Below, in pieces: positions 14,729 through 51,968 of a DNA stretch of 64,000 nt. The notes under the pieces were generated by a model. That model saw nothing but the letters and a program-made list of their open reading frames with translations, had not been told where the DNA came from and did no database searches. This stretch comes from Prorocentrum cordatum. Lineage: Eukaryota. A program made the position numbers and the translations under genes. The DNA is taken from the NCBI GenBank assembly GCA_963575745.1, contig CAUYUJ010000114.1:1116001-1180000 (forward strand), in the 5' to 3' direction. The first letter of the stretch is position 1. Each line of letters begins with the position of its first letter.

Positions 14729-14769
<41 letters not shown>

Positions 14770-15776
14770 CATTCATGCAGTTTCGAGGCCATCTTGGAGC
14801 TTGCAAGCCCTGTTGCAGCTAGCTCCTTGGGACATGCGTGGACGCGCCTTAATCATTCGGGACATGTTTAGGCAACTTGTGCACAAGACTATCTTCGGGC
14901 CTCGTGGGCCTGATTATGCATCTTGAGGACAGTAGCTGGTTTCTTGGGGCTTGCAAGACTCCTGAGTAACAGCTCCTGCCAGTTTGGAACTGCATGAAGG
15001 CCCTCTGCTTTGGGGTCTGACCTTCTCGGGTAGCAACTCCACAGCCTGGCGGCCACTGTGAGGACGGCCAGCATATATTTTTGGCTTCGATGGGAGAAGC
15101 AAAGACTGTCAGCTCTCTTTCGGCCAGCTGCACAGATTGTTCAGACATTCCTCCGGCGCAGTCGAGGACGGATGCCGAGGATTCTGGAGATTCCCTCGGC
15201 ATTTGGATGATCGGAATCTCCATGCTCGCGGTTGTCCAGCTGCTGAACGCTCTCTTGGGCCACCTCCAGTCTCGGTTCTACAAGGATTACGCACACCTGG
15301 CATCCAAGAACCAGCTCTCCGATGAGTACATGTTCACATCCCAGGTTGTCGCCCTCGTCCCATTGATGTTCATCTGGGATGACCTTGGCGCAGCTATTTC
15401 AGCTGCTGTGCAGTCGCCGCCTATGCCTATAATTCCTATTCCATCCAGGATCATGTGGCTCATTCTGAATTGCATGGCGGACTACGTCTGCCTGACGGGC
15501 GTGTTCCGGACGAGCTCTATCGTGCCCCCCTTGACGTTGACAATGATATTGTCCGTGAGGAAGTTTCTTTCCACAGTTGTGTCTGTTTTGTGGTTCAAGA
15601 ACGCGTGGACAGGTTTGCACAGCTTGGCAGTTCCGCTTATATTTGGTGGTGCGCTGATTTATCCATGTGCGCTGCCGCGCGAATCCGCTATCGCGTTCTC
15701 TCTCTCTCTCTCTCTCTCTCATGGCCGGGTGCCTGGAGGAGGGGGGTGGGCGTCAGGGGAACAGAGAGCGCAATAA
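12253..15776 (+). CDS. Nucleotide-sugar transporter (UAA family, SLC35B4/YEA4-like), interrupted; possibly pseudogenised
   Basis: Segment 12253-~12870: MTDNGKG..VFGGCMC..GNLLSL..NYAFAYKISVTIFTMVRSCNLI/GNVLLGRLLLG..Y..QLLCV. Segment ~15075-15670: IGISMLAVVQLLNALLGHLQ..E YMF..LTLTMILSVRKFLS..SVLWFKN..FGGALIY. A 201-bp in-frame MITE insertion lies at 12583-12783. The join across 12870-15075 and the true 3' end could not be resolved. Confidence 0.8.
12583..12778. mobile_element. 196-bp MITE, 5-bp TSD TCATC
   Basis: TIR tcgggccggacgaaagggggggat / atccccccctttcgcccgacccga; TCATC at 12578-82 and 12779-83; near-identical copy at 63325-63520. Confidence 0.92.
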
Positions 15777-16208
15777 TGGCGGTCTCCTTCTTTAAATTTT
15801 GAGTCCGAAAAAACATAAGTATATGATGAACAGGTGCTCCCATGATGGCTTCCACTGATCGGGCGGCCTGCCCCACTGTTTCGCACGAAGCCAAAGCAGC
15901 CAACAAATGCTCGCCGTGCCAGCAGAAGACATAGAGAACAAAGAGAGCACTACGTACACATACATGTACACATATATGTACATAGATATATATATATATA
16001 GAGAGAGAACAAAAAAGATATCAAAGAGAGCATTATATTGTATTGTGCGTACGGGGCGCCGTACGGGAGCCCGTACGGGAGACCGTACGGGATATTCGAC
16101 GGGAGACCATACGGGGCTGCACAGGCGATCGGACGGAAGGCTGCCACGAGAGATCAGACGGGAGACCGCGCGGGAGACCGCGCGGGAGACTGTACAGGAG
16201 ACTAAACC

Positions 16209-16337
16209 TGGCATCGCTCGGACGTGTGCAGTTTTCCTTCGGCGAGGACCATCGAGGAGCATCCTTGATCATTTGGCGAAAAAACCACGCACGAAACCAA
16301 AAAAAACACAGGGAATGGACGTCCGAGCGATGGCCAG
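16209..16337. mobile_element. ~128-bp MITE family (TIR ..CATCGCTCGGACGT); copies at 26484-26610, 43445-43568, 43712-43999, 52926-53056
   Basis: tggcatcgctcggacgt..ggcgaggaccatcgaggagc..acgtccgagcgatggcca recurs at least five times; no TSD could be resolved. Confidence 0.8.
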
Positions 16338-18052
16338 CTATATGGGATGTTCATGCCAGCGATGCGGGAGACCGCGCGGGACTTCACACAGGAGGCCCTA
16401 CGGCAGACCACACGGGCCACCAGCCACAGGTTCTCCGTCCGCAGGAGTTCGCACACACGCTGTCGAAACCACGCGCAGATCCTGTATATACCGGCGAGTT
16501 GTTCAGGGAGCGGAGCCCCACCCCCATCCAGACACAGGCACCCACACGCACGCACACACACACACACAAAGATCTACTGTACCGATGGAGAGCGCACGAA
16601 TCGAGCACGCACGTTGCGAGCAGAATCCCGCGAAGACAGACTCAGTAAGATGGGACGAGCAGTGAGATGGGGCAAAAACGAGCACACATGCACACGCACA
16701 CGCACACACACACACACACCTTCACAAGAGTCGTTGCAGGCGCGGCGGCGGACTCTCAGGCTCCACAGGTCGCGCAGGTGCAGGGCGAGGAGGAGGAATC
16801 CAAAAAGTCGGACTGATCTCGAGCTGCAGCGCGGGCGCCGGGCAGCAGACGCTGCCTGGCCGCCGGTGTCGCTAGCGTTGCTCTCATGACGACAACGTGC
16901 ACGGGTCCTCTGTTGCTGTGAGGACGCTCGACTGCAAGCTGTCGGTCGAAGAGCCAAGGAGGCACAGGCATAAGTTGTCCGAGGTCCGCGCGGTTGTTTT
17001 GGGGTCGGCGTTGGACCCGCCGCCCTTGGCGCGCTTCTCGCGCCGGGAGAGGGGCGTACAGCGCCGACCCAGAACACCCTCGCGGACCTCCGAAGTTTTA
17101 TGTTCGTGCCTTTTTGCTGCTCCTCCACGAAGTCAAGCTGTCAACGAAGAGCGGCCTTGGTTAGAAGATGGAAGGTATGAACCGAAGCGCTTGTTGATCG
17201 GGTGGGCTGCCAGGATCGTCGAACAAAAACCGAGGGGGTCAGGTCAGGACGAGGGGCGTCTCCTTGGTGTCTCTTGGGGGCCTCTCGGGGCTTCAGGGCT
17301 GATCTGTTAAGGATACCTCGAGGGAGCGGCTATTCCGACTGCCACCAGGGGAATTTACACCGGCAATTCCTGCAAATGTGGGGCCAGGGCCCTAAACGAT
17401 TCTCGAAGCCATGAATATCCTACAGTTGCATGGGCCTTGGGACACTCCACTTCGTGTTGAAGGCACGATGACGGATTGGGAGGAGGAGGAGGAGGAGGAG
17501 GAGGAGGAGGAGGAGGAGGAGGAGGAGATGGAGGAGGAGAGGAGGAGGAGGAGGAGGAGGAGGAGGAGGAGGAGGAGGAGGAGGAGGAGGAGGAGGAGGA
17601 GGAGGGGAGGGGAAGTGAGGCGACGGGAAAAGGGCGGTGGAAGAGGAGCAGCAGCAGGTGAAGAGGGGAGGTGGGCCCCCCTCCTCCTGATTCCTCCTCG
17701 TCCTCGTCCTCCCCGGTTTTTTCCTCCTCGTCCGTGTGTTTGTCTTCATCCTCGTTTCCTCGTGCCTCCCCTCGCTGCCCTTCCTTTCCTCCACGCTGTC
17801 ACATCCGCCTCCTTGGGTCACTCTCTGCACTCCTCGCGCTCGTCCTCCGCTGTTTCTCTGTCCTCGCTGTCCTTTTTTCTCCCCTGGCCGTTTCGCTCGA
17901 GACGTCCTCCGAGCATCGACTTCCACGGGGGCTCTGAGCGAACGTCGCCCTGGGCTCGCCCCTTGCGAGCAGGCGGGCGTCGAAAAAGGTGATGACGGAA
18001 CGGGGGGGTGCCGCCCGCCGCCGCCGCCCGAGGAGGAGGACCAGTGCATACA

Positions 18053-18215
18053 TCAAGAGGGAAAAAACACACAGACACAATGAATCGTCGATTCCCAGGA
18101 AAATATGGGAAAATATGGGAAGTGGGGGGAAGACGAAAACCCAGAACATATGGGAAAATATGGGGATCATTCTTATTTCTGTGTATGTCTTTGTGTGTGT
18201 CCTGGGGCCCCTCTA
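18053..18215. mobile_element. MITE homologous to kinase intron 46966-47133, 5-bp TSD ATACA
   Basis: Shares cacagacacaat..cgattcccag.aaaatat.ggaaaatatgggaagtggggggaagac with the intron; ATACA at 18048-52 and 18216-20. Confidence 0.85.
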
Positions 18216-18399
18216 ATACACTTCCCTTCCAAGATCCCTCTTCATAGGCCCTGGGTCATTTCCCCTGCGGGGAGTGCTCGGTTGGGGGACAACCGCATGA
18301 ACATCTTGCAGCGCCCTGACAATCCTGAATCGACCCAACACACCATCTCTTGGTAATTACGTTATCCATGCGAATCCGTGAAATTCGTGCAACTATTTA

Positions 18400-18870
18400 A
18401 AGCGAATGTGCGCGGCGCCAGCGCTAGAGCCACATTTTGAAAACGGCCCGCCGCCAACCCGTGAAGCTATTGCAAATGCGTAAAGCAAGCTTACGCGGCG
18501 CCAAGGCGAGAGCCACATAAAAAAACGAGCCGCCCTCAATCCTTGAAACGCTTGCCGTTTTTGAAAAAAAAACGAATGCGCGCGGCGCTGAGGCGAGAGC
18601 CACATTTCGAAAACCACCCGCCCTCAATCCGCGAAGCTCTTGCAAATTGTCAAAACGAATGTGCGCGGCGCTATGGCCAGCGCCACATTCAAAAAACGAA
18701 TCGCCCTCAATCCGCGAAGCGCTTGCCATTTTTTGGAACGAAGGCGCGCGGCGCTGAAGCAAGAGCCTCAGTTTGAAAACCACCCGCCCTCAATCTGTGA
18801 AGATCATGCTAATGTGTAATACGAATGTGCGCGGCGCTACAGCGAGAGCCACATGTTTAAAACGAATTGG
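18400..18870. repeat. ~83-bp minisatellite; related arrays at 19450-19590 and 51215-51545
   Basis: gaatgtgcgcggcgct..ggcgagagccacatt..aaaa..cgccctcaatcc repeated. Confidence 0.8.
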
Positions 18871-19973
18871 TACAGCGCGGCTTCGGCCCGGTCCTGAGCG
18901 CTCGCCCCTGCAGGACCGGATCCGCTCCATCTCCTGCTCCAGTGCACCAGCACCCCGTCGGTCGTCACAGGCGGCATGTTCTCGGCGTGTCCTGATTGCC
19001 GCGCCTCAAGTCTCTGCGGCTCCTGTACCTTGGACCTGTGGCACCATGGATTACCACGGCCCTGAGGCACTCGCTCCTGCTACCTGTACGATGGCACAAC
19101 GTTGCACTTCGTCTCAGCGTCGCTCTCCTCGCTCTCACTGATCCCTGACGCAGCTTGGTTGCAAGGCGCGTCACCTCTCGCCGCCAACTCGAGGCTGGTG
19201 TAAATGATGACCCGTTGACAGCAGCACCAACCACAGCATTTTGCTTCAACCGGTACTCCGCCACCGGGTTCATGGAAAAGGCGCTCCTTTGCAAGTACGT
19301 CGGCTACGGCACCGCCTGATTCCGAGGCTTTGCCTCCTCCCGGCCTCGTTCTGAGGCTGCGCCCCCTCTTTTCTTCCCCCATCTCTGGTTCATTCAAGCT
19401 TCGCGCGGCCCGCTTAGCTTCGACGGAAGAGGCGCGCTCTCGACCCGCGAATCAAAACAACATGTTTTAAACGCATCACCTTCAATCAGTGAAACTCGTG
19501 CGAATTTTGTAACGACTGTGCGCGGCGTTAAGGCGAGAGCCACTTTTTGAAAACCACCCGCTGTCCGTTTGTGAATCGGATGCCAAGTTTTCAGCATCAC
19601 AGTCATAAGATGTGAGGATGTCTCAGGCGAAACGCCCGGGCCCGCCCCTTCGACCTGCCTCGGGGCGCGACAGGGAGGAGTTATCTAGAAGGAAAACAAA
19701 GGAGGGGAGGACAAGTAGGAGGGCGAGGGCCGCGGAGAAGTTTGGGCAGGGGAAGGGGCGGTCATGATGCGGGGGCAAAGGGGGAGAGGCTGTTGGGGAC
19801 AGAGGGCGGAGTGGCGAGCGCGGGCTCGGGAGAGAGGGTCGCGTTGCAGGGGGTCCTGGTGGGTCGGCGCGCAGAGGGAAAAGGGCAGGGACGAGGCGGT
19901 TCTGGATTGCGACTCTGACGAGGCTCGCGGTTTGTCCGAGGAGGGCGGCGCGCGGCCACCTGGCAGCAGCACG

Positions 19974-20008
<35 letters not shown>

Positions 20009-20012
20009 ACGC

Positions 20013-20050
<38 letters not shown>

Positions 20051-20868
20051 TCAGCCATCGGTCAGGCCGGGCGCCGAGGTCTTGTGAGAAACCGAGCCCC
20101 CCCCCCGCCACAATCCCCAAGCTCCACCCCCTCCCCCTCGTCCTGTGGCGCGCGTGGCCGCACACGGCGCCTCCAGCAGCGTACTTGCCGGGCAGGGTGG
20201 GAGAAGGGGAGGGAGGGAGGAGGAGGTGGCCAGCACGGGCACGAAAAATGGACCCAGCGGGCTGAATTCTGAGCTGCAGCAGCAGCATGGCAGCAGCAAG
20301 CATAGCAGCATCGATGCGCAAGGACGGTGCGTACAGTGCAAGCGAGGCGGGGAGATCCTTGAAAGGTGAACGGTCTCTCCCTGGCGGCGCGATCGGCTGT
20401 GCAAACAGAAACGACAATCGCTGAGCCCAGCATGGCTGGTCCAGCCTTCGTTACTGAAAGGGAGCTGAATATCTTCGCGCCCTGCACGCGGAACGAGAGG
20501 CGGGACGGCGAAGGACCACCGCGCACGATTATCTCTCAGCCTTGCCAGAAGGGCTGGCCCATCTCGCCGAGCGCGTTCCACGGCTCGCGAAGTGCCTACT
20601 CGCAAGCGTCCGAAAAGCACCTGTCTGCTTTGACGTAATTTATCGTAGATCCCTGGGGGGGGATCCAGGCCATTTGCGAGCACTGTGGGGGCGCGTGCCA
20701 AGAAACCAGTTGGATTTTGCCAGGGTGCCCTGGGTTTCTTGTATTCTGATGGTCTCCCAATCAGATCCTGACGATTTTCGATCGGCACATGTGGATTTTC
20801 ACTGAACCAATCGCGTATTTCAGGGTTGGGTTTCTTGCGGAGGTCTCTTGTGGCCGAGCCCCCACTGT

Positions 20869-21580
20869 ACAGTCGGGGCCCTGAAGAAGGAACCCCTTTG
20901 GTTGGGGAGGGGCTCCGCGTTCCTTAAGTGTTTCACAGCTTGCCTCAGGTGTTCCTTATGTTTTCGATCGGAAATCGAAGTTTCACTTATGGAAAAAGGG
21001 GCCTCGTTCCTTATTTGGGTTCCTTAGGTCAACGCCCCGACTGTTATTCTGCGAGTGGTGGAACGCGCTCGTCGACCATCGCTTCCCTACCCCGGAGCGC
21101 ACGGCCCCCTGGAGCGCGCGGCCCTCGTGGGCGCAGGCTCCCGCAGGGCTCCCTGGAGCGACCTCCCCTCGGGAGCGGCGGGCGGCTCGCCGCGCAGGGG
21201 ACTCGAGCGCCTCCTCCTCACCTCCTCCTCCTCCACCTCCTCCTCCGCCTCCTCCTCCTCCTCCTCCTCCTCCTCCGCCCCCGCCTCCTCCTCCTCCTCC
21301 CCTTACACCTACTTGATGAGCGACCACACCTTGGAAGGACTGGTTCGGATCTTTGCCCTCCTGGAGCTGGGGTCTGGGGCTCGCTGGCTCTGCTCGCGGC
21401 GGGGGCCGGGCTCTGCCCCGCCAGCGGCCCCGCAGGCGGCAGCGGGCAGCACGCGTGGCACCGGCGGTGCTGCACGCTGTTGTACCCCTCTCCCCATCCC
21501 CTTTATAGCCAGGACCCCAGGTAAGGAGACCCGGTTAGTAGTAGGGCCATGGAGCCCCTGAAATGACCAGAGTCACTAAA
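20869..21580. repeat. Interspersed composite repeat; paralogue at 22966-23625
   Basis: acagtcggggccctgaagaaggaaccc..cttaggtcaacgcccc and atagccaggacc..gacccggttagt occur in the same order at both loci with different fillers. Confidence 0.7.
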
Positions 21581-22036
21581 CCAGGACGCTCAATGGAGAG
21601 GAAGCATGTCGCCAAATAATTCCCAGATGTCTAAAACATGTGCTGTACATGTCTTAAACGTGTACAAACATGTTCAAAGCATGTTTCCGACATGTTAAAC
21701 ACATCTTGAGTTCAATGATAGGACTGTTAGGGTGTCCATTGTCGTGGCATCCACAACCCTACCCGGCACACGATCCGCGGGCGGAGGGACGTGGTGTGTG
21801 CATGTCTCCCTCGGCGAGGACCATGGAGGAGCCCCCTGGAGGACTCAGCGACAGGAGCACGCGCGAACTCGAAGAGTACACGAGGCATGGGCGTCCGAGC
21901 GGTGGCAAAAGGGTGCCTTGGCTGCCGGGGGGGGCGGCGGCGGTGGGCGCGCGGGGCCCCGCGCGTGCCCCCGGCGCAGCGGGTGCCGAGCTGCCCCCCC
22001 GGGGCTGGGGGCCACGTGGGGCCCGGACGCCGCCAC

Positions 22037-22192
22037 TAGGGGGCCACATGCGAACCCGACCCCTGCCCCCCACGATTTCGGAGGGGGAGGGTGGGGTTCC
22101 TTTTCGCTCGGGAGCTCCCGAACGAAGTGAACCCCACCCTCCACCTCAGAAGTCGTGGGGGGGCAGGGGTAGGGTTCGCATGTGGCCCCCTA
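22037..22192. mobile_element. Fold-back palindromic MITE, 5-bp TSD GCCAC; second copy 43739-43891 nested in another MITE
   Basis: tagggggccacatgcgaaccc..gggagctccc..gggttcgcatgtggcccccta; GCCAC on both sides. The copy at 43739 has TTTGT/TTTTT flanks. Confidence 0.88.
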
Positions 22193-22639
22193 GCCACGGC
22201 TGGGCGCGCCCTGGCCGAAGCTGGCCAAGGAAGACTCAAAAATAGCCCCAAAAAATCGCATGGGGGCGATGTTTTGAACATTCTTGGCCATGTTTGATGA
22301 TTTGTTTGAGTATTTTTTCATTTTTCGTGCAAGATCCCCCTGTAGGGGGACAGGGCCTACTTCAAACTGGTCACGGTGGCATGCTCGGCGCCCGTCCAAG
22401 CCGTGCGTGCAAGGGACGAGGGGGGAGGGAGCGGGGTCAGGCGCAGACGGGGCCGCTGACCGTGGTGCTCCCTGCGCACGCGCCGGCGATGGCGCCCGCG
22501 CGCCCGGCGTACGCTGCTCCGCCCCAGGCGCAGGACGGGCCGACCTGGAGGTAGCCGAAGAGGAACAAACGGCATGAGCACAAATTGTCGGAAGTCCGCG
22601 CGGATCTCCTGCATCGGCCATGGACCCCTCTCTCTGGCG

Positions 22640-22830
22640 TTAAGTCGGGCGTGTCCCCCTACAGGGGGATCTTCGACGAAAAACAAAAAATACACCAAGC
22701 ATAGTCCAAAAAGGTCAAAAATGCTCAAAAAATAATCCCCAAGCTATTTTTGCATTATTGTTTGATTATGTTTGGGGTATTTTTTATTTTTCGTCGAATA
22801 TCCCCCTGTAGGGGGACATGCCCGACTTAA
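22640..22830. mobile_element. MITE family with TIR TTAAGTCGGGC(C/G)TGTCCCCCTACAGGGGGA and 8-bp TSD; other short copies at 27205-27440, 42785-42971, 45641-45801
   Basis: TSDs: CTCTGGCG (22632/22831), GAGTAACG/GAGTAGCG (27197/27441), CGCGAGCC (42777/42972), CCATATCG/GCCTATCG (45633/45802). An orphan right end lies near 22335-22363. Confidence 0.92.
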
Positions 22831-24697
22831 CTCTGGCGCGCGGAGCGCACCGAGAGCGGCGCCAGAGGCGCCGCCAGGGGGGGTCCAGCGCCGAGGCCCC
22901 GAAGGCCAGGCGGACCGCCGAGAGCTCCTGGTTGTGCAGTTTGTTTCGGGTGTGGACAGACCTCCTACAGTCGGGGCCCTGAAGAAGGAACCCTTTTCGT
23001 TGGAGAGGGGCTCGGCGTTCCTTGATTGTATTGCAGTTTGCTTTCAGTTTTCCTGAGGTTTGGGAAATCGAAGTTTAACCTATGGAAAATAGGGGCCCCG
23101 TTCCTTATTTAGGGTTTCTTAGGTCAACGCCCCTTCTGCACCCCGACACGTCGATCAAGGAATTGGCCGTTTTCGGTTCGCGAGAGGGCGCCGCGGCCGT
23201 CATTTTTGTTGCGGGTCCAGGTCCGTCGCTTTCGGTCCCGGGCCGTTTTCGCTGAAGGGGAGGACGAAAGGGAGGTGTGTCCGCCGCCGAGAAGGGGCTC
23301 TTTGAGCAGAAGCCGCCAGGTCCTTCCGAGAGAGCCCTCCGCCTTCTCAGCAGGCCGACCCCTTCGCCCCACTTTGGGGGGAGGGCGCGAGCGGAGCGAT
23401 CTTTCTGGCGAGTTCGTTGGCCGTTGTCGTGTTGACTTCCTTCTGCAGCAAAGGCGGGGCGAAAGCCGAACGTGAAAAAAACAAGAAACAAAAAAAAACT
23501 GCACGAACACGGAAAACGTGGTTTAGCTAGGGCCTTGCTCCGGGTATAGCCAGGACCTTGGGTAAGGGGACCCGGTTAGTGGTAGGGCCCTGGGGCCCCT
23601 CAATTGGCCAGATTCACTCAACCAGGTTTCCCGTAGCTGGTGTTTTTCGGGTGACGGCAGTTCCGGTTAGTGGAAATGGGACGGGGGGGCGCCCCCGGTA
23701 CAAATCACTAAACAAGGTTCCAGTAAACCCCGTTCTGCCAACGCCCGATTGCTGCGCGGCGCAGCACCGCCGTCCAGCGCGGCCGCGTCGCCTGCGTGGC
23801 CGTCGCGGTGCCTCTTGGAGGGGGGGGTTCTCGGGGTTCCTCAGGCCAGTCTTGGGGGTCCCAGGCGCAGTCCTGGGGGGGTTCTCATCCTCGTCCTTCT
23901 CCTTCTCCTTGTCTTCGTCCTCCTCCTTCTCCTCGCCCTCGTCCGCCTCGTCCTCCTCATCTTCGGCCTCCTCCTTCTCCTCGCCCTCGTCCTCCGCGTC
24001 CTCGTCCTCCTCCTCCTCGTCCTCGTCGTCGTCCTTCTCCTCCTCAAGAACGCTGAGTCTTGGGCCAGCCTTTCGGCTGCTCGTGAGAGCGACCCTTCGA
24101 CGGAGTGACCCTCGGTGCGCGCCCACGGTAGCCCCCCGAGCACGGGCCTGCGCGCTTGGAACCGGGCCCCCCGCGGCCTCCTGCAGCTGCGCACCAACGG
24201 TCACTCTTTCCTGCCGGGGGCCACTCCTGCGTGGAGCCGAGTCCTCGGCTTTCTCAGGGGCCCATGGCCTGGATGTGAGGAGGAGGAGGAGGAGGAGGAG
24301 GAGGAGGAGGAGGAGGAGGAGGAGGAGGAGGAGGAGGGAGGAGGAGGAGGAGGAGGAGGAGGAGGAGGAGGAGAGTAGGAGGAGGAGGAGGGGGAGGATG
24401 AGGAGGAGGAGGGGAGGAGGAGGAGGAGGAGGAGGAGGAGGAGGAGGAGGAGGAGGAGGGGAGCTCTGTGCGTCTTGGAGGCCTTCTTGCTGGAGGGTCG
24501 CCTGCGTGGCCGGCGGGGGCTCTCGGGGCCGTCTTGGGGGTCCCAGGGGCCGTTTTTGGGAGGTGTCTCGAGCCAGTTTTCGGCCTTCTCGGAGAAAGAG
24601 GAAGAGGAGGAGGAGGAGGAGGAGGAGGAGGAGGAGGAGGAGGAGGAGGAGGAGGGGCAGGAGGACGAGGAGGAGCGAACTTGCGGAGGTCCGCTCG

Positions 24698-35575: not shown

Positions 35576-35783
35576 CATATATGTGTATATATACATATAC
35601 ATATATATACATATAGATACACACAAAAACATACTGGTGTTCCAAACAGGTGGTGTACCAAACAAGTGCGACGTCTTGCTCGCGCCCTGGGGGCACCCTC
35701 CTCGCCTCCTTGACCGCCCCCGCTTCCCCCCTCCGAGGGCGCGGCCGCGGCCCCGTGCGCGGCCGCGCCCGCGGGCCGATGCC

Positions 35784-38700
35784 ATGGGCAACTGCCGCTC
35801 CGGCGCCCCGGCGGACCCGCGGCGGCAGGGCGGCCGCAGGACGCCGAGCGCCGCGGGCGGGGCCGTGAGCCTGCAGGAGTTTCTCCCTCTGGGCCTCTTA
35901 AGTCGGGCCTGGCCTCTTAAGTCTGCACGCTACCGCGCACGTCCACGGGCTGCCCGCAGCCTACGACTCCGACCGACCGACCGACCGACCGTCCCTCTGT
36001 AGGCGGACTGCTCATGAATGTGTAGCCCAAAAATAGTCGGGGGACGCTTTTTTAAGCGCTTCTTAACCATTTTGGGGTATTTTGTGTTTTTTGTTTTTGA
36101 GCCCAAAATCATCCCGGCAAAGCAACCTAACAGCGATGTGTAGGAGCATATCTGGAAGCATTCCCCTTAAGATTCAGATGAGAACCCAGTTGTAGAATTC
36201 TGCTGTTCTCGCAGTCGTAGTCGCATTCGCGATGACAGTCGCAGCGGCAACGGCAGTCGCAGTCACAGCCTCAGCCTCAGCCTGCCTCAGCCTCAGCCTC
36301 AGCCTGCCTCAGCCTCAGCCTGCCTCAGCCTCAGCCTCAGCCTGCTTCAGCCTCAGCCTCAGTCTGCCTTCAGCCTCGGCCTCAGCCTCAGCCTGCCTCA
36401 GCCTCAGCCTGCATCAGCCTCAGCCTCAGCCTCAGCCTGCCTCAGCATCAGCCTGCCTCAGCCTCAGCCTCAGCCTCAGCCTCAGCCTCAGCCTGCTTCA
36501 GCCTCAGCCTCAGTCTGCCTTCAGCCTCGGCCTCAGCCTCAGCCTGCCTCAGCCTCAGCCTGCATCAGCCTCAGCCTCAGCCTGCCTCAGCATCAGCCTG
36601 CCTCAGCCTCAGCCTCAGCCTGCCTCAGCCTCAGCCTCCTCAGCCTCAGCCTCAGCCTCAGCCTCAGCCTCAGCCTGCCTCAGCCTCAGCCTCAGCCTCC
36701 TCAGCCTCAGCCTCAGCCTCAGCCTCAGCCTGCCTCAGCCTCAGCCTCAGCCTCAGCCTCAGCCTCAGCCTCAGCCTCAGCCTCAGCCTGCAGCCTCAGC
36801 CTCAGCCTCCTGCCTCAGCATCAGCCTCAGCCTCAGCCTCAGCCTGCCTCAGCCTCAGCCTCAGCCTGCTTCAGCCTCAGCTCAGCCTCAGCCTCAGCCT
36901 GCCTCAGCCTCAGCTCAGCCTCAGCCTCAGCCTCAGCCTCAGGCCTCAGCCTCAGCCTCAGCCTCAGCCTCAGCCTCAGCCTCAGCCTGCCTCAGCATCA
37001 GCCTGCCTCAGCCTCAGCCTCAGCCTGCCTCAGCCTCAGCCTCAGCCTGCTTCAGCCTCAGCCTCAGTCTGCCTTCAGCCTCGGCCTCAGCCTCAGCCTG
37101 CCTCAGCCTCAGCCTGCATCAGCCTCAGCCTCAGCCTCAGCCTGCCTCAGCATCAGCCTGCCTCAGCCTCAGCCTCAGCCTGCCTCAGCCTCAGCCTCAG
37201 CCTGCTTCAGCCTCAGCCTCAGTCTGCCTTCAGCCTCGGCCTAGCCTCAGCCTGCCTCAGCCTCAGCCTGCATCAGCCTCAGCCTCAGCCTCAGCCTGCC
37301 TCCTCAGCCTCAGCCTCAGCCTGCTTCAGCCTCAGCCTCAGTCTGCCTCAGCCTCAGCCTCAGCCTCAGCCTGCCTCAGCCTGCCTCTCAGCCTCAGCCT
37401 GCCTCAGCATCAGCCTCAGCCTCAGCTCAGCCTGCCTCAGCCTCAGCCTCAGCCTGCTCCTGCATCAGCCTCAGTCTGCCTTGCAGCCTCGGCCTCAGCC
37501 TCAGCCTGCCTCAGCCTGAGCCTGCCTCAGCCTCAGCCTCAGCCTCAGCCTCAGCCTCAGCCTCAGCCTGCCTCAGCATCAGCCTGCCTCAGCCTCAGCC
37601 TCAGCCTGCCTCAGCCTCAGCCTCAGCCTGCTTCAGCCTCAGCCTCAGAATGCCTTCAGCCTCAGCCTCAGCCTCCGCCTGCCTCAGCCTCAACATGGGA
37701 TCAGCGTACCCACGACTGGGCCACCATCAAGCGCTGGGTCCAGCACCTGCGCTCGGAGCGGTCTCGACTTGATCGCTATGCCCTGCGGCTCCAGGCGATG
37801 GAGGACTTGGGCATGGCGCAGGTTCCCCACTACCAGAAGGTGGCGCAGGCCAGGCTGCAGGTGGAGCAGTTCTGCCGTCAGATCCTTAAGCATGACACGA
37901 TCATTGATCGACTTGACCCCAGCCAGCTGGCCTTCTTCCGCGAGGGCGTGGATGGCTTTGGCTCCGACCACTTCGATGACATGGCGGACGCTATTGAAGG
38001 ACATGCCCAGGTCATCCTGTTGCAGGCCCAGTCCCAGGTCCGCTGCGTCTGGCTCCAGTGGGCACGCGACGCCTTTCTTGGAGGAGCGAGCATGGCACAC
38101 GCTACCTCCAAGGTACGGGCTGCCCAGGTGGTCTTAGAGCATCGTGCTGACGTTCAGCCACATGCGCTTGCCAACCAGGTCCTCGACGGCTGGATTGACA
38201 TCTGGGAGCGACATGGGTCGAAGGAGCTTCAAAAGCCCCACGACGCGGGTACTTGGGATAGTCTGCGGGTTGCCGCGATTGGTCCAATCATACGGCCCAG
38301 AGCCTTGGTGGACGATGTCGGCCTTCGGATGGTCAGCTCCGATCCAATGGACTTGCTCACCCTGGGCAGCGCTGCCTCCTCGTTTGCCGCTTGGGCGTTG
38401 GAACGTGGCCTCATTCTGAACACCAAGAAGTCGGCGGTGGCCGTGGGATCGGTTCGGACCCGACTCGAGCTGGACCGCCTCCTGCGGCGCAAGAGTGGGG
38501 GCGTATTGTGGGCACGATCCACGGACGCAGTCAGGAGTTTCCCTCGTGCCAGCCATATGCGCAACTTAGGGCATGAGCTGCATGGGCCCAAGGTTCGTCG
38601 TACTGTGGCCAAGGCGCGCATGGCCAAGCTACGTGGACGACGTCACCGTTTCCGTGTCCTACAACGCGCGGTGGGTAGGCGCACTACTACTCTGTGGCGC

Positions 38701-41700: not shown

Positions 41701-44700
41701 CCTGCTTCAGCCTCAGCCTCAGTCTGCCTTCAGCCTCGGCCTCAGCCTCAGCCTGCCTCAGCCTCAGTCTGCATGCAGCCTCGGCCTCAGCCTCAGCCTG
41801 CCTCAGCCTGAGCCTGCCTCAGCCTCAGCCTCAGCCTCAGCCTCAGCCTGCCTCAGCCTCAGCCTGCCTCAGCCTCAGCCTCAGCCTGCCTCAGCCTCAG
41901 CCTCAGCCTGCTTCAGCCTCAGCCTCAGTATGCCTGCAGCCTCAGCCTCAGCCTCAGCTGGCCTCAGCCTCAGTCTGCCTGCAGCCTCAGCATCAGCCTC
42001 AGCCTGCCTCAGCTTGAGCCTGCTTCAGCCTCAGCCTCAGCCTGCCTCAGCCTCAGCCTCAGCCTGCTTCAGCCTCAGCCTCAGTATGCCTTCAGCCTCA
42101 GCCTCTGCCTCAGCCTGCCTCAGCCTCAGCCTGCCTCAGCCTCAGCATCAGCCTGCCTCAGCATTCAAAATGTGGCCCGGGAGTGGAGTTTTGGGGATTT
42201 CGAAGAATACGAAGTGGCCTACAGTTGGCTCCGGGCTTTCAAAATCATGCCCGGGAATGGAGTTCTGGGAGCTCGAAGAGCACGAAGGGGCCTACAGTTG
42301 GCTCCGGGCATTCAGAATGTGGCCCGGGAGTAGAGTTCTGGGACCTCGAAGACCACGAAGTGGCCTACAGTTGGCTCCGGGTTTTCAAAATCATGCCCGG
42401 GAATGGAGTTCTGGGAGCTCGAAGAGCACGAAGGGGCCTACAGTTGGCTCCGGGCATTCAGAATGTGGCCCGGGAATGGAGTTCTGGGACCTCGAAGACC
42501 ACGAATGTGTAACTGTTTGTTTAAAGCGACTTCCGCGGATTCTCCCCGGATCCTGCCCGGACCCCTCCTTGGGGAAACCTATTAGTCTTCGCTGCTTGGT
42601 AAAAACAATCGTCGCGAATCCCCCTGTAGGGGGACAGGCCCGACTTAACTCTGGGCCTCCCGGGCGGGGTCCGAGCGGCGTCCGCAGGGTCGCCCCGCCT
42701 CGGCGGTGCGGCTCGACCGCGGGGGCGCGCGGTGTTCCACGCTGGCGGCGCCGAGGCAGCGCCGACGGCGACGCGGCGCGAGCCTTATGTCGGGCGTGTC
42801 CCCCATACACGGGGATTTTCGACGAAAAAAAAAAACAAAAATGCTCCAAAAAGGTGAGCAAATACTTACAAAATAGTCCCCAGACTATTGTTTGATCATT
42901 TTAAAAACTATTTGGGGGTATTTTTTATTTTTCGTCGAACATCCCCCTGTAGGGGGACAGGCCCGACTTAACGCGAGCCTCCGGCCCCCTGCTGTCTGCT
43001 CGGACTCTGAGGGGTCCGAATTTATAGGGGTCGGAGGCTTGGGCCGCATCCGCGATGTCGGCAGTGTCTCGGCGACGCCGGCACCGGAAAAAGGAGGCTC
43101 TGGTCGGTGCCCTGGGGGCGGGCACAGGTGGACACTGGGGCGAGAATCGGTGATCCTCAGAGTCCAGGCGACCCCCCTCTGCTCGGACCCCCTCTTGGGG
43201 GGCCTGCGAGGAAGTCGTTGTGCTGCTGAACCGCACGAGGCTCGGGGGGCAGCAACTCGCAGAAGAAAAAGAAGAAGCAGCTGCATCTCAGCTGCAAAAC
43301 CAAGTCATACCACGCGCCTCCTCGTCAAGCGGCCTGACCAGTACAGGCCGCAGTGTGGCATCGCTTGGTATCTCTTGGAAGCGAGGGTGGTCAAACGCGA
43401 GGTGGGTTTGTTTTCCCCCTAGCATCTGCGCGAGGGAAAGGACTTGGGATCGCTCGGACGTGTGCATTTTTCCTCCGGCGAGGACCATCGAGGAGCGTCC
43501 TTGACCATTTGGCGAAAAAGCCTCACACGAAGCCGAACAAAAAACACAGGAAATGGACGTCTGAGCGAGGGAGAGGAGCGGGGTCGACCGCGCGGACACT
43601 CGCTCGTGAGCTTCCCCCGCTAGGGTGGCGCGCCGGCGCCCTCCAAGACCAGCACGGCTGCCGGCATCCTCGCCCGCACCGCGCGGGCCGCCGCTGCTGG
43701 CCTCGTGTCCTTGGCATTGCTCGGACGTGTGCATTTGTTAGGGGGCCACATGCGAACCCTACCCCTGCCCCTCACGATTTCTGAGGGGGAGGGTGGGGTT
43801 CACTTCGCTCGGGAGCTCCCGAACGAAGTGACCCCCCCCTCCGCCTCAGAAATCGTGGGGGGTAGGGGTGGGGTTCACATGTGGCCTCCTATTTTTCCTT
43901 CGGCGAAGACCATCGAGGAGCAGCCTTGATCATTTGGCCAAAAACAAAACACGCACGGAACCGAAAAAAACACGGGGAATGGACGTCCGAGCGATGGCCT
44001 CGTGTCAGCACAGCGCGTATCATCGATCTCGGGATCTTCACCAGCATAGCGTAGCTCCCCGGCGCCGGCATCCTAGTCGGCACACCCAGGAGCACCGACG
44101 CCAGCATCCTCGCCGGCGCAACGCGGATCACCGACACCAGCATCGACCCGCCCACGCTCACGCCGACGCCAACGCTCACACGCAAGCCCACTCCCACACC
44201 CGCGCCCACGCCCACACCCACGCCCACGCCCAAGCCCACGCCCACGACCACGCCCACGCCCACGCCAACGCTCACACGCAAGCCCACACCCGCGCCCACC
44301 CACACCCACACCCAAGCCGACGCCCACACCCGCGCCCACGCCCACGACCACGCCCACGCTGAAGGCCCCCTTGCGCACCACCTCTGGAGTCGAGGGAGTG
44401 CCACGGCTGCCGCGCCCAAGGGGCCTGAGACGGATAGGGGAACCACCCCCACGCGCCCCCTCTGGTGTCGAGGGAGTGCCACGTCTGCCACGCCTTGGGA
44501 TCCTGAACTGAAAAAATGTGAGGTCCGTGCGGATTTCTCTGGTCGGCTCAGGAAGGAGGATGGCGGTTCGAAGTTCGAGGTTGTCGGACTTGCTCGTCGG
44601 TTCTCCGCGGCTTTCCAGCCTCGGGGTGCGTTTCCGCAGTTGCGCCTCACCGAGAGGCGTCCTGGGGCGCCCGGATCGCCCTGAACGGCGGCCAAGGACC

Positions 44701-47700
44701 CGAGCTGGGACCCGAAAGCCAGACGACGAGGATCACTTGTGGGACTGGCTCAGGAGCAGCGGCTCGAAGAATCACAAACATCAGAGGTACTCGCGGGTTT
44801 CTTGGGGCGGCGCTTCGGCGCCGATCCAAGTTTATGTTTTGCGCCGTTCATTCCTGTTGCGACACGGGGGGCAGAGGATTGGGATACGAGGGTGGAGGAT
44901 CGACGTTCGCTTTGTAGACGTCTTTGTTGATCGTCCTGGGGCGCCCTCGCGGCCGCGGCTGGATTCGCATCGAAATTCTGGTCAGGACGCGTCCCAGGAG
45001 AGGTCTCGAGGCGTCGATTGCTGACTTCTGATAAGGGGAAGTGACTGGGGGGGGACTGGCTCAGGGGTCTGCACGGACGAGATGGGCACGGAAAGATTGG
45101 GTACGATGTCCAACAGCAGTTCCTGTTCATTTTGAACAGGACTCGTTGTCCGCGCCGCCGCGGCCTGTGCCCAGTCGAGACAGAAGGCCGCCCGCCCAAC
45201 AGCGGCCGCGGTATGTTTGGGACAACATTTGTCGTTGGGCAATGTACCCATTCTTTCCGCGCGTATTTCGGGTGTCCAAAATTAACGGGCGAAGAACGGT
45301 ACAAAATAAACTTTTTCGCTGTCGCGGGCGCCTGTCCCAGGGCGGCTGGAAAGTTTATACCCTTACGGTGGCACCGTAGGGGTATAAACTTTCCAGCCGC
45401 CCAGGGACAGGCGCACCCGACAGCGAAAAAGTTTATGTTATACCGTTCTTCGCCCGTTAACAAAAGGGGGGGCAGCATCGAGCCCCCACCGCACGATCAT
45501 CGCCGATGCGGGGCCCGATAGCCCACCCCGCCCAGGAGCCCGCGGCTTCGCCGGGGGCCTTGTCGCCGGTCTGTCGGCGAGGCGTCGCTGGTTCGGGCTC
45601 GAGGGTCCCCCCGCCCCACGAGCCCGTCCCTCCCATATCGTGAAGTCGGGCCTGTGCCCCCACAGGAGGGATGTTCAGAAATAGTCAAATAATGCTCTGG
45701 GGATGATTTTTAAACAGTTTTTGACAATTTTTTCGTATTTTGTGGGTATTTGTTTCGCTTTCGTCCAAAATCCGATTGTAGGGGGGACACGCCCGACCTA
45801 AGCCTATCGTCTCCCCCCAGAGGCTCTTCAGACACCTGCCCCAGAACCAGAAGAGCCACGTGGACCTGGCGAAGGCGTGCCAGCACGAGAGGTTTAAGGC
45901 CGGGGACGTGATCGTGAGGCATCGCAGGAGAGACAACTGCATTGGCTTCTCGAGGGTTCGCGCAGGTGTCATGGATCTGTGCTTTCTCCCCTCTGCGGCG
46001 CCGCCCCTGGCGCGCTCTTCGCGGCAGGCGGGAGGGTCGAGTGCTGGTCCAAGACATCCGCGCGGGCCCTAAAACAATCGTGCTCTTGCCGCTTGGCACT
46101 CTTCTGAGGCAGGGAGACGCCGGCAATTTCTTTCTCGCGATCTTGGAGGGGAAGGTCTGTCTGGGGTCCGAAAAGGGGGGATTATCCCAATCTGTGCTTA
46201 GGGTGCGAACCTAGATGGATGCTCACATCTCCTTCTTCCAATGGAGCGATACTCCTCTAACCTCACCCCTGCCCCCTTCCCCAACTTGACGTCGCCCCGA
46301 GAAGGTGAGCGTAACAGTGGACGGCAAGAAGGTTGCGACTTGGCGCGACGGGGCGGACTTCGGGGAGCAGTCCCTCCTGCACGATGAGCCGCGGCAGGCG
46401 ACGCTGCAGGCCGTCACTGACGTCTCTGCCGTCAAGATCACCCGGGAAAGGTTTTGGAAGCTGGGGCTGAACCGCAAGTTGCAGTTCAAGGGCCGCAAGG
46501 CGATCAGGGCTGCGGCAGCGACCACACGTGACAGGTGGAAGGCAGAAATTCAACGGTCATGACCGAGAGTTCTCGTCGATGCCGATCGCGGTCATGGTCC
46601 ATGCCGGCCGTCGCCGATTCGTGAGGATGATCCACGCATCACCTGCGACCAAGATGGATGATTTCTTGCCCTCCAACAGGGAACCCACTCCAGGAGGAGG
46701 AGGAGGAGGAGGAGAGGAGGAGGAGGAGGAGGAGGAGGAGGGAGGAGGGAGGAGGAGGGAGGAGGAGGGAGGAGGAGGGAGGAGGAGGGAGGAGGAGGAG
46801 GAGGGAGGAGGAGGGAGAAGGCAGGAGGAGGGATTAATTACCAAGATCGACGTTGTCTTGCCCTCCAACAGGGAGCCCACGCCGAAGACCCCGAGAGAGC
46901 GGCACCTCATCGCCGAGGCGCTGCTGGCGAACGAGAACCTGCAGATGCTGGTGACCCTGGACAAGGTCAGGGGGGGAAAAAGCACAGACACAATTCATCG
47001 GCGATTCCCAGAAAATATAGGAAAATATGGGAAGTGGGGGGGAAGACAAAAAAAACCAGAAAATATGGGAAAATGTGGGGAACTATTTTTATTTGTGTGT
47101 ATTTATTTGTGTGTCCCAGTTCCCCTTCATAAGGAGCGTGTGCAGAAGATGGTGGACGTAGCCTGGAAGGAGGTGGTCGAGCAGGGCGTCGACGTGATGG
47201 TGGAGGGTGACCTCGCCGACTGCATGTACGTTGTGCAGGCGGGCGCCTTCCGGATGGAGAGCACGAGGAAGGACGACTTCGGTGCCCACACCATCGTGCG
47301 CGAGCGCTCGGAGGCCCCCAACCAAGACCCCCACCGCGAGCACTCGAAGGCCTCCTCCGACCTCGTACGCGAGCATTCTGTGGCCTCGGCGGAGTCCGCG
47401 GACACCGGTCCACCACCAGGACACACATCACATGCGCGTCGCACCGATTTCACGCCAAAGTCTAGGGGCTCGTCTGCCTCAGGCCGCATGCCGCGCTACG
47501 ACGAGGTCATCGCCGCTGGCGGGAGCTTCGGGGAGCTCGCGCTGCTCTACAGCACCCCACGGTTTGCCACAGCACGCGCTATAGAGGCTTCTGTACTGTG
47601 GGGAATAAACCGGAAGCACTTCAGGGACATACTTATGGGAGTCCATGAGGAAAAGCTCCAGAGTCATGTGGCGTACCTCAGGCAAGTTGGGTCCCTCAGC

Positions 47701-50700
47701 ACTCTGCAGGAAGAGGAGCTCAAAGAGCTCGCGAAGGCTTTGAACGTCAACACGTTCCAGAAGGGCGAGTTGATCGTTCAGCAAGGCCTTCCGTCTACCA
47801 GTTTGCACATCGTCTACGAGGGGCAGGTGGCGGTGATCATTGATGGCAAGGAGACGTGCCGCCTGCGAGCTCATCCCAGGCGGCGAGTGTGGCTTCCAGT
47901 CTCTGCGAGCTGGTGCTGTGCCGGCGCTGGGTGCGCGCCTCCACCGCAGACTTCTCACGTCGTGGAGGAGCAGGCGCTCCTCGGCGGCTACCCGTGCCGC
48001 ACGGACGTCAGGGTGGTGTCGTCATCGGCCCGGACCCTCTCGCTTCTTCGCGACAGCTTCGAGATGCTGGTGGGTACCCTGGACGATCTGGAAAACGCCA
48101 GGGCGGTGCGGCGGAACCACCGCACCTCGATCCGCACTGCCGTGCACCGCGCCAAGACGGCCAGACTGCTCAACTCCGCACCCGAGAGGCAGGCGTACCG
48201 CGAGAAGGTCACCCACATGCGCGACCTCACCAAGGTCAGGCCCCTCGGCAGCGGGCAGTTCGGGAATGTGGAGCTCTGGCAGCACAGGGACGGCAGGAGG
48301 TTCGCGATGAAGATCCTGAGCAAGAGCCACATACGCAGGCTGGGCGCGGAGCAGAGCATCATCAATGAGAAGAATTTGATGCTCATGACGAGCTCGCCGT
48401 TCCTAGTGCGGCTCTTTGAGGCGTACAGCACGCCGAACGCCCTCTACCTGCTCCTGGAGTTCGCCGCCGGGGGGGAGCTGCACACGGTCTACAACCGCAG
48501 GCAAGGGGCAACGCTGTCAGAGGGGATAAGCCCAGGGGGGGTTGCAGCGACCCCCAATGGCCCGATGGGGGCCGGATAGCCCACCCCGCCCAGGAGTTTG
48601 CGGGCTTGCTATCGGGGGGGCCTCTCGCCGGTCAAGCGGCGGTGTATCGCCGATTCCAGGTCGACGGTGTCCCCCAATATGAGCCAGTCCCCCCCCTAGC
48701 AGCTAGGCGCACCAAGTCGGAAATCTGCTTGCCGGCAGGTGCCCCACGGAAATTCCCTCTCCCCCGACGGTCCCAGGCCCCCACGGAGGCCCCGGGGCAC
48801 TCTCTAAGACCCTCAAAGATCGACGAAGAACGCGCCCAAATATTCCTTCGATGGCAGAATTTCTTGTGGCAGTGCGGCCCAACGGTTCAGAAACAATCTG
48901 GGAGGGGTCGCAGCGGACCATTGGGAAGTGGACGATGAAAAACACAATCCGGGTTCGTCGTCGTCGCCGTCGAGGCCGCCAGACCGTTGCCAGCGAGCTG
49001 GACGTGGAGTCGGAGGTTGGGGGTGAGATCACAGTGAAACGGAGAGCCCCCCACCGGGAAATCGGTTTCGCTTTCGTGTTCGTGTCGTGCGTGCGGGCTA
49101 TGCGAAGCTGCGCAGGCTGGCCAGGGGGGGACTGTCCCGCCAGTCGTCGCTCGGCTTCGGCTTCCTTCGCCTTGCTTGCCCTGGCTCGGCTTTGGCTCGC
49201 TTTCCCTCGCTGGGGCGCGGGTGTCCCGGGTGTCCCACCGTGGTACCTGGTGGTGTCCAGTGGTGTCTTTGGTGTCTCGTAGTGAGATGGCGTGCGAGAC
49301 CGATAGTGAGATCGAGTGAGATCGATCGTTGGATCGGTAGATGGATCGATAGATAGAAAGTGAGATCAATAGATAAATCGATCGTGAGATCGATTGTGGG
49401 ATCGATTGACTGACGGAAAGCGATAGTGGGATCGATCGTGAGATCAAACGATCGTGAGATCGATAGTGAGATCGATGGATAGTGAGATCGATCGTGAGAT
49501 GGGTCGTGGGATCGATGGTGAGATCAAACGATCGTGAGATCGATAGTGAGATCGATGGATAGTGAGATCGATCGTGAGATGGGTCGTGGGATCGATGGTG
49601 AGATCGAATGTTCCTCTGATGGAAAGAGCGCGCGGGCAAATAAGTGCTACCTGGTTCCGTTGGTTGCCCCGATCCTTTGGTGTCTCGTAGTGACATCGAT
49701 AGTGAGATCGATAGTGCAATCGAATATGATATCGATCGTGATATCGAATGTGTTTCTTAACGGAAGGGCGTGCGGGTAAAGACATGCCACCTGGTTTCAT
49801 TGGTTGCCCCGATCCTGTGGTACCGGATGTTCTTCGAAGGGAAAGAGCGCGCGAGCAAATGAATACCACATGGTTCAGCTGGTTGCCCCGATCATTTGGT
49901 GTCTCGTAGTGACATCGAATGTGAGATCGATACTGGAATTGAGTGAGAGGTCATCGTGAAATCGAATGTTCCTCTAAGGGACAGCGCGCGCGGGCAAACT
50001 CGTGCCAACTAGTTTCGCTGGCTGCCCCGATCCTTTTGATGTTTCGTATCCATAGTTGGACTGGTAGTGGTATCGTATCGATAGTGAGAGCGATTGTCAG
50101 ACCATATGCTCTTCTAAACCAAACAGCGCGCGGCGGACCTTGTGAATGCTACCTGTTTCCGTTGGTTCTCTCAATGAGTGTTGATGGATGCCCCGGTAGA
50201 TAAATGGAGTAACATATTGTCCAGCACGTTCGTAGTATACCAAAATCAATGACACATGCCTGCTGCGTTGCTCCCCTCAGCAGGGGCTTCTACGGCAGCG
50301 AGAAGCACGCAAAGTTCTACGCCGCGGGGGTGGTGCTTGCCTTCGAGCACCTGCACGACCTCCACATCATCCACCGCGATTTGAAGCCCGAGAACGTGTT
50401 GCTGGACTCGGAGGGGCGGCCCAAACTCGCCGACCTGGGCCTCGCCAAGGTCACCAGCGGCACGGCCCAGACGTTCTGCGGCACGCCGACGTACCTGGCG
50501 CCAGAGGTCAGAGGAGGACAAGTTGAGACAACGATGGTTGACCCCCCCCGTCGCCGCGGCTGGACAGAGCTCGGACAGTTTACGCATGTGGACAGTGGAA
50601 GAGGCCCGGGGATCGATTTTGAGCCGCCGTTATCTCAATTCGCCCTGCTCCGAAGAGGTCATCCGGGGCACTGGTTACACGCACTCTGCCGACTGGTGGT

Positions 50701-51968
50701 CCCTCGGGGTGCTGATCTACGAGCTCCTCTGCGGCACGACCCCGTTCGAGGCCGTCAGCGAGCTGAAGATCTGGAGGAAGGTCGTCGCCGGCGTGGAGGG
50801 CACGAACTTCCCCGAGCCCTGCCAGGGCGACCCTGGGGACTTGATCAGGGCGCTCTTGTGCCTGGAGCCCTCCCAGAGGATGCCCGTGCTGCCCGCCGGC
50901 CTGGAGGACCTGCAGCGCCACCGGTGGTATCGGGGCTTCGACTGGGAGCCCTTCCGCGACCGGGCTCTGAGGGCGCCGTACCGGCCGAAGGAGATCAGGC
51001 AGGCCTGTTGCTGAAGATGAGCCGATCCAGAGAGATCGCCGCCACGAAAGAGCAGGGTCCTGAGGTGAGCAAAAACAACATGAACACAAATTTTCGGAGG
51101 TCCGCGCGGACCACCGAGAGTAAACGTTCCTGCAGTTGTCTGCTCCTCCAGATTTGGACCATCCTTCGCCATGGGGGCCGGGTCCTGAGGTGATGCTCTT
51201 GCATTTGTTTCAGGTGAATGCGCGCAGCGCCAAGGCGAGAACCACATTCTTAGAACGGCCCGCCCTCCATCCGTGAAGCTGTTGCGAACTTTGCGACGAG
51301 AGTGCGCGGCGCTGGGGCGAGAGGCACATTTTGAAAACGGCACGCCCCCTATCCGTTAAACTCTCGTAGAATTCGGGACGGATGTTCGCGGCGCTGCGGC
51401 GGGAGGTCACATGTTGAAAAGAAACCGCCCTCCGCCCGTGAACCTCTGGCAACAGTTGTATGACGAATGTGCGCGGCGCTACGGCGGGAGGCCACATGTT
51501 GGAAAGGATCTGCCCGCCCGTCCGTGAAGCTATTCCAATTTGTGGGTTCCAGAATCAGAATTGAGGAAGAGGTCTCAGCCCGGCTCGCCCTCACGACACG
51601 TCTCGAGATGTGGCAGGGAGAAGTTATTGATATAAGGAACAGGAATGGAGGAGGAGGAGGAGGAGGAGGAGGGGGAGGAGGAGGAGGAGGCGGAGGAGGA
51701 GGAGGAGGTGGAGGACGAGGAGGTCGCCCCGCCGCCGCCTCAGGAGAGGGACTTCGACTCGGGGTTCAACAGCGCGGAGCGGGCGGCACCCTCGGCCGAC
51801 GAGCCCTACAGGGACGACGGCTCGGCGTGGGACAGGAGCTTCGCCACCGTGGTGGACGACGGGGCGTGCGCGGGCGCCGGCTCGCTCCACGGGGACGGCT
51901 CCCCCGGGCTGCCGCAGCTCTTCCGCCGCGGCTCCCGGCGGAGCGGCAGCTTCCTCGCGCGGCCGTAG
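35784..51968 (+). CDS. Cyclic-nucleotide-dependent Ser/Thr kinase with PKG architecture (3 CNB domains plus AGC kinase domain). Predicted exons: 35784-~35876 (tentative), 45821-45918, 46109-46154, 46305-46534, 46872-46965, 47134-47886, 47950-48500, 50284-50506, 50658-51002, 51744-51968
   Basis: Splicing keeps the frame: [94 protein letters not shown], and an AGC tail [12 protein letters not shown]. The first exon MGNC.. (acylation-type N-terminus) is linked only by inference. The 63-nt intron at 47887-47949 is uncertain. Confidence 0.9.
36266..37692. repeat. (CTCAGC)n hexamer satellite with CCTG interruptions; continues at 41606-42162
   Basis: Read directly from the sequence; split by the retroelement. 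Confidence 0.97.
37693..41605 (+). mobile_element. 5'-truncated, internally deleted non-LTR retroelement (RT C-terminal part, CCHC, RNase H, C-terminal Cys motifs) inside a (CTCAGC)n array
   Basis: RALVDDVGL (RT domain 5-like) and [35 protein letters not shown]; RNase H motifs YTDGSG..GPLP..QTVGRAE..TDLK..WTPAH..GNAWA; CRCRGC and YCCSKC. Three different frames (ORFs ending 38820, 39719, 41305) indicate decay. Confidence 0.8.
42165..42510. repeat. ~73-bp tandem repeat (alternating A/B units)
   Basis: cccggga.tggagttctggga.ctcgaaga.cacgaag.ggcctacagttggctccggg about 4.5 times. Confidence 0.85.
45282..45460. mobile_element. Near-perfect 179-bp hairpin MITE, 5-bp TSD CAAAA
   Basis: ttaacgggcgaagaacggta..tacggtg g caccgta..taccgttcttcgcccgttaa; CAAAA at 45277-81 and 45461-65. 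Confidence 0.9.
49290..49760. repeat. GATC-rich GTGAGATCGAT(A/C) tandem tract inside a kinase intron
   Basis: ~12-bp units, plus an internal ~87-bp duplication near 49434-49607. Confidence 0.85.

Follow-up and report, generated by a model that had tools for sequence, protein, structure and literature searches.

A 163-nt element that probably acts as an Introner in Prorocentrum cordatum, found as a kinase intron and as a copy without splice sites in the same window

A 163-nt sequence that forms an intron in a cGMP-dependent protein kinase gene of the red-tide dinoflagellate Prorocentrum cordatum (copy A) recurs within the 64,000-nt stretch analysed here (the window) as a second full-length copy, B, which has its own target duplication. 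We read this sequence as a non-autonomous, multi-copy transposon acting as an Introner in P. cordatum, most likely a miniature DNA transposon, and give that reading a probability of roughly 80%. At copy A, the GT donor is made of the last G of the left target duplication and the first T of the element, while the acceptor AG is supplied by the right duplication. Judging from a public gene model and from homologs, removal of the element along with one duplication restores the reading frame exactly. Coordinates are collected in Table 1.

Table 1. Element copies, their target duplications, and the host kinase gene with its sibling introns (positions within the window)
Feature	Coordinates	Strand	Description
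Host gene, partial cGMP-dependent protein kinase	43211..51965	+	Span mapped from public model P0001 in 9 blocks of exact match, with 8 introns
Kinase exon upstream of the intron	46872..46965	+	Ends Leu-Asp-Lys
Intron (A plus one duplication)	46966..47133	+	168 nt, phase-0 GT-AG, 3n, open in the kinase frame
Large downstream kinase exon	47134..48500	+	Encodes the cyclic-nucleotide-binding domains; the kinase domain begins here
Element copy A	46967..47129	+	163 nt, 40% GC; ends TC...CA; direct repeats inside, terminal inverted repeat weak
Left target duplication of A	46962..46966	+	CAAGG, NNAGG type; its final G opens the GT donor
Right target duplication of A	47130..47134	+	TAAGG, 4/5 match; source of the AG acceptor and of the exon G after it
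Element copy B	18053..18215	+	163 nt, TC...TA ends; neither strand offers a canonical exact excision
Left target duplication of B	18048..18052	+	ATACA
Right target duplication of B	18216..18220	+	ATACA
Sibling intron	50507..50657	+	T...A element of 146 nt, different from A; AGAGG duplicated perfectly (5 bp, NNAGG); clear inverted repeat, 15/20
Sibling intron	46535..46871	+	T...A element of 332 nt; ACAGG duplicated perfectly (5 bp, NNAGG); inverted repeat 12/20
Sibling GA-AG intron	50991..51743	+	Readable as a TC...CA element with GGAGA duplication (GGHNN type); register not unique
Sibling GC-AG intron	43240..45822	+	Can be read as a TC...CA element flanked by a GAGGC duplication (NAGGH type), though other registers fit

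The two copies are homologous over their full and equal length of 163 nt. A similarity search in the window returned 84.7% identity over 150 nt (E 3e-39) and, aligned end to end, 136 of 167 columns are identical (81%). The local alignment scores 176, whereas 1000 shuffles reached 30 at most, which rules out a resemblance of low-complexity sequence only. Both copies start with T and end with A, and B is framed by its own 5-bp ATACA duplication, all as described in the first-pass annotation, whose coordinates (intron 46966-47133, sister copy 18053-18215) were also right. The duplications differ between the copies, being perfect in B (5/5, ATACA/ATACA) and imperfect in A (4/5, CAAGG/TAAGG); taken alone, that of A is also readable as a 4-bp AAGG. 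The 5-bp register is fixed by the length of B and by transcript contigs that cease to match B at 18052-18053, as is seen in five of the listed contig pieces. No third copy of the element was found within the 64,000-nt window, and among 24 local alignments of A or B with other intron elements of the kinase gene one was unequalled in 200 shuffles (0/200), at a low score. The pair had previously been presented as direct evidence of mobility. This is overstated: the intron does derive from a mobile element, but two copies 15-19% apart point to past spread of the family, not to present activity or to direct copying of one from the other.

The reading frame of the host gene contains cyclic-nucleotide-binding and kinase domains, and its best database match is P0001, a P. 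cordatum gene model that equals the window exons letter for letter and omits precisely the 56 intron codons. These codons are stop-free in the kinase frame, and the intron, GT...AG followed by G, is the sole 168-nt G[TCA]...AG excision at A. Among a further 119 homologs, 45 match the local segment and 44 span the junction; two of the latter have a one-residue insertion there and none has more than one residue. At the intron site, paralog P0002 carries Thr where the host kinase has Lys. Word shares agree with these comparisons: for 46846-48498, 14 of the 24 listed runs contain 0.86 of 171 sampled words and four more contain 0.81, all counted in assembled contigs, which drop rare forms, and leaving out runs X20-X24 (shares of 0.15 or 0.00). 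The predicted share is 0.864 with both intronic parts absent and 0.985 with the 168 nt retained. The 14 runs at 0.86 belong to five studies and hold about 100 million letters each, a size that suggests transcriptomes; among the 24, no run is recorded as DNA. Taken together, word shares, gene model and homologs lead us to infer that the 168 nt are removed exactly from the mRNA, and the word shares speak against a kinase transcript that mostly retains them.

That the intron is 3n and stop-free, so that retention would keep the frame, had been put forward earlier and is true (168 nt, 56 open codons), but it carries little weight. Both copies add up to 163 + 5 = 168 nt, and the 3n length is hence a family property. 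Only 4% of shuffled introns are stop-free; with four of six plus-strand frames open in the two real copies together, the stop-free state says little about selection on A.

Elsewhere along the gene, paralog P0002 matches 35778-35891 and 43166-43243, which suggests that the partial model lacks further kinase exons upstream. About 17 nt from the 3′ end of the 337-nt intron, AG/G included, stand on either side of a GAG tract (46664-46683 and 46857-46875), and 46664-46683 might serve as an alternative acceptor some 190 nt upstream.

In the mechanism that we propose, the element would be moved by an enzyme acting in trans with a 5-bp staggered cut. Carrying neither splice site whole, it would borrow both from the target duplication. 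On insertion into an exon at NNAGG, the G of the duplication and the T of the element would form the GT donor and the AG of the second duplication would serve as acceptor; at a site that lacks such bases, such as ATACA at B, the element would stay an ordinary insertion. The first-pass annotation had confined the formation of splice sites to NNAGG, which is too narrow, as NAGGH, AGGHN and GGHNN also fit by geometry. At any of these four targets, a T...A element with a 5-bp duplication would be expected to give a GH donor and an AG/G acceptor with exact removal. NNAGG occurs at 74 of about 2600 positions of the kinase coding sequence (2.8%) and all four types at 14.3%; NNAGG thus makes up about a fifth of the intron-permitting sites. 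For the A/B family itself, the intron in hand is the NNAGG copy A, the other targets following from geometry; NAGGH targets are already used by class 12 in Polarella glacialis, according to the account of Roy et al. (10.1101/2020.10.14.339549). As both strands of the element begin with T, the reverse orientation should, by the same geometry, also give introns.

Copy B offers no 168-nt G[TCA]...AG excision on either strand. The statement that it lies outside any recognised gene holds so far, with no Pfam match at the curated cut-off for the 98 ORFs (at least 35 aa) from 15700-21300. Under a codon model derived from the kinase, every one of the six frames in either flank of B falls below zero; the test is blunt, given that one true transporter exon also scores below zero. 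A rival reading makes B an intron in its own right, spliced from an unrecognised gene without canonical signals: taking out 168 nt leaves the frame intact, the minus strand is open on both sides of B, and the empty site reads on that strand as a single open frame. However, a 3n insertion gives such frame continuity automatically, the flanks have neither coding scores on the kinase model nor Pfam matches, and no longer homolog was found for the 90-aa plus-strand ORF that runs through B. The protein matches at B point the same way, four of the five being the element's own translation and the fifth a tandem repeat that matches the flank. We hold an intronic identity of B to be very improbable. 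B may, as distinct from this, sit inside a long intron of an unrecognised gene. Contigs from four assemblies placed on 17700-18369 leave 17769-18044 and 18183-18369 uncovered and show no joint across B, and the uncovered flanks are not evidence for B being intergenic.

Several features surround B. A UAA-family nucleotide-sugar transporter gene (12240-15700, + strand) ends about 2.3 kb before it. A candidate exon at 18247-18355 was rejected on a negative codon score and the lack of a homolog. Tandem repeats of approximately 83-nt units are found at 18370-18865, 19456-19728 and 51197-51543, dispersed to at least three places, and the last of these copies sits inside a 753-nt intron. Part of the 190-nt kinase intron 45919-46108 (45999-46068) has a diverged partial relative (72%) at 17018-17088, about 1 kb upstream of B.

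That relic, a GAG tract and B stand in kinase-gene order, and five of 120 kinase homologs match 15800-24000 weakly (tblastn, E 0.007-0.01), four of them about 2.2 kb from B. Both observations would suit an origin of A and B by local segmental or gene duplication instead of transposition. GAG tracts, however, occur 32 times in the window, and the kinase-like match that was inspected is 24% identical, has neither the catalytic-loop motif nor a Pfam match, and was taken as chance. The exons flanking A are unrelated to the flanks of B in 4/4 comparisons (p 0.28-0.88), the target duplications of the two copies differ, and nine further flanks of the element are unrelated as well. The possibility that B is an intron of a paralogous kinase is ruled out by the same dissimilarity between the flanks of B and the exons around A. 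Local duplication thus appears largely refuted by the unrelated flanks, and we consider it extremely improbable.

Transposition of a multi-copy family is further indicated by transcript contigs. Of 22 contigs placed on 17700-18369, 21 fall on the element, mostly on its left end. Twelve listed loose-end rows lie upstream of the element; with two mixed-consensus rows and one duplicate dropped, nine distinct single-contig flanks remain, eight of them with a readable target, and a further five loose ends and two pieces are outside the listed flanks. None of the nine listed flanks matches a flank of A or B. Adding A and B to these nine, the family is multi-copy, with at least 11 insertion sites. 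Splice-permissive targets are present in two of the eight readable flanks (one NAGGH; one NNAGG, reverse strand), about chance level. Assuming uniform density, one extra copy per 64 kb translates into about 1,900-410,000 copies, a range too wide for use. Exact-pattern scans for the element gave no match in metagenome contigs or viral contigs. Element copies are also seen inside deeply covered transcript contigs (X4 records 14 and 18; depth 80 and 241, respectively), and such depths indicate that some copies are probably in mature or abundant RNAs, for example in untranslated regions.

The kinase gene holds other introns of similar architecture. Perfect junction repeats of 5-8 nt are found at seven of the eight introns of P0001 (rough p 4e-5 given the shared AGG), and most junction-repeat introns (43240-51743) are readable as T...A elements of unrelated families with 5-bp duplications and purine-rich ends. 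The terminal inverted repeats of the 146-nt and 332-nt elements, taken at the 5-bp NNAGG register, score 15/20 (0/2000 shuffles) and 12/20 (p 0.002). All 13 aligned termini start with T followed by a purine-rich run, in an alignment that leaves out two T-starting termini of the 150-nt intron, one C-starting terminus and the 190-nt intron. Under the GGHNN reading of the GA-AG intron, the acceptor is formed by the A of the element and the G of the target. Most introns of the host gene look like products of related elements with 5-bp duplications. Dispersed palindromes some 155-195 nt long, hairpin MITE-like families, were also noted at 22036-22193, 43739-43891, 22639-22831 and 42782-42972, some nested in introns.

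With respect to its nature, the element has MITE-like traits: it is short (163 nt), non-coding and flanked by a fixed 5-bp duplication. Neither copy has more than a weak, non-significant inverted repeat (A 10/20, p about 0.06-0.12; B 6/20; overall p 0.05-0.6), and the longest perfect terminal inverted repeat in A and B spans 6-7 nt. Compared with shuffles, A folds no better (z 0.24) and B marginally so (z -1.65). Rfam returned no credible match for the element, with one below-threshold chance match, and no transposase for the 163-nt element was found. We nevertheless favour a miniature DNA transposon because real inverted repeats are present in siblings that share its duplication length and have T-purine ends much like its own.

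An origin as the solo LTR of a small Copia- or TRIM-like retrotransposon with non-canonical ends would keep the intron-making role and would account for the weak inverted repeats. As described for non-TGCA LTRs such as Tos17 (10.1101/137141), these elements likewise have a 5-bp duplication and TC...CA / TG...GA ends and are short, with a mean of 272 bp; the TC...CA of A, which is TG...GA on the other strand, falls among those non-canonical motifs. Solo-LTR introners are, moreover, known from switchgrass, as reported in PMC12130899. The A/B family differs from the LTRs of that description in having no visible paired repeat, primer-binding site or polypurine tract, and the nine distinct left flanks, examined by eye, have no common polypurine tract or primer-binding site either. 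B, in addition, ends in TA, and the siblings that share the duplication length and T-purine ends, while unrelated, carry real inverted repeats. We therefore rate the solo-LTR origin as unlikely and retain the miniature DNA transposon as the preferred reading.

The minus-strand translation of B, compared with 1.84 billion proteins, gave five matches, of which four (P0121, P0122, P0125 and P0123) are predicted proteins that translate the element. Three of these are labelled Pyramimonas sp. CCMP1952; the Pyramimonas-labelled proteins show 56-78% amino-acid identity in their best blocks, and two reach the right end of the element. One could speculate that a dinoflagellate and a prasinophyte green alga share the element through horizontal transfer, and that a group of undescribed T...A elements with 5-bp duplications, four target types and both orientations built most introns of the kinase gene. 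We find this combined scenario rather improbable, and the Pyramimonas matches are more likely to stem from mislabelling or contamination of that data set. To test whether the Pyramimonas-labelled set is Prorocentrum, short near-identical kinase pieces were sought, and none scored among 1299 candidates.

The intron-making mechanism itself is already in print, and the A/B family is a further instance of it. Class 12 of Polarella glacialis, as described in 10.1101/2020.10.14.339549, similarly has a 5-nt target duplication and takes its acceptor from the duplication; at NNAGG its donor, too, joins the terminal G of the duplication to the first base of the element. In that description class 12 starts with C and has mostly GC donors, whereas the A/B family starts with T and has a GT donor; the two belong to different genera and are compared here by the description of their geometry, not by sequence. 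Fam9 of Symbiodinium natans, another species, is likewise listed with a 5-bp duplication, both splice sites co-opted and a mobilising enzyme that is not known (PMC12130899 Dataset S2); in 12 of the 14 supplement files of that study, "Prorocentrum" has 0 occurrences. Co-option of both splice sites is described in Florenciella by Gozashti et al. 2022 (PMC9860276), by whose account intergenic copies of intron-making families are expected and systematically recovered. Their survey is genome-wide, whereas ours concerns two full copies and nine partial flanks. A description of the A/B element family was not found in the open literature.

For P. cordatum itself, Dougan et al. (10.1101/2022.07.25.501386 / PMC10666404) report introner elements as 2.4% of introns, counted by a pattern of 8-20 nt inverted and 3-5 nt direct repeats (PMC10666404). 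Theirs is a pattern count in the same species, and we found no description of families there (PMC10666404). The longest perfect terminal inverted repeat of the intron at A is 6 nt, so an exact match to the pattern given there would probably miss it.

A and B thus offer a paired example, an intron copy and a non-intron copy, of transposons that borrow splice sites from their insertion scar. With such repeats at seven of eight introns in the kinase gene against the 2.4% reported, the present data suggest that the published pattern search under-counts, and that elements with weak hairpins and 5-bp duplications made many of the introns of P. cordatum.
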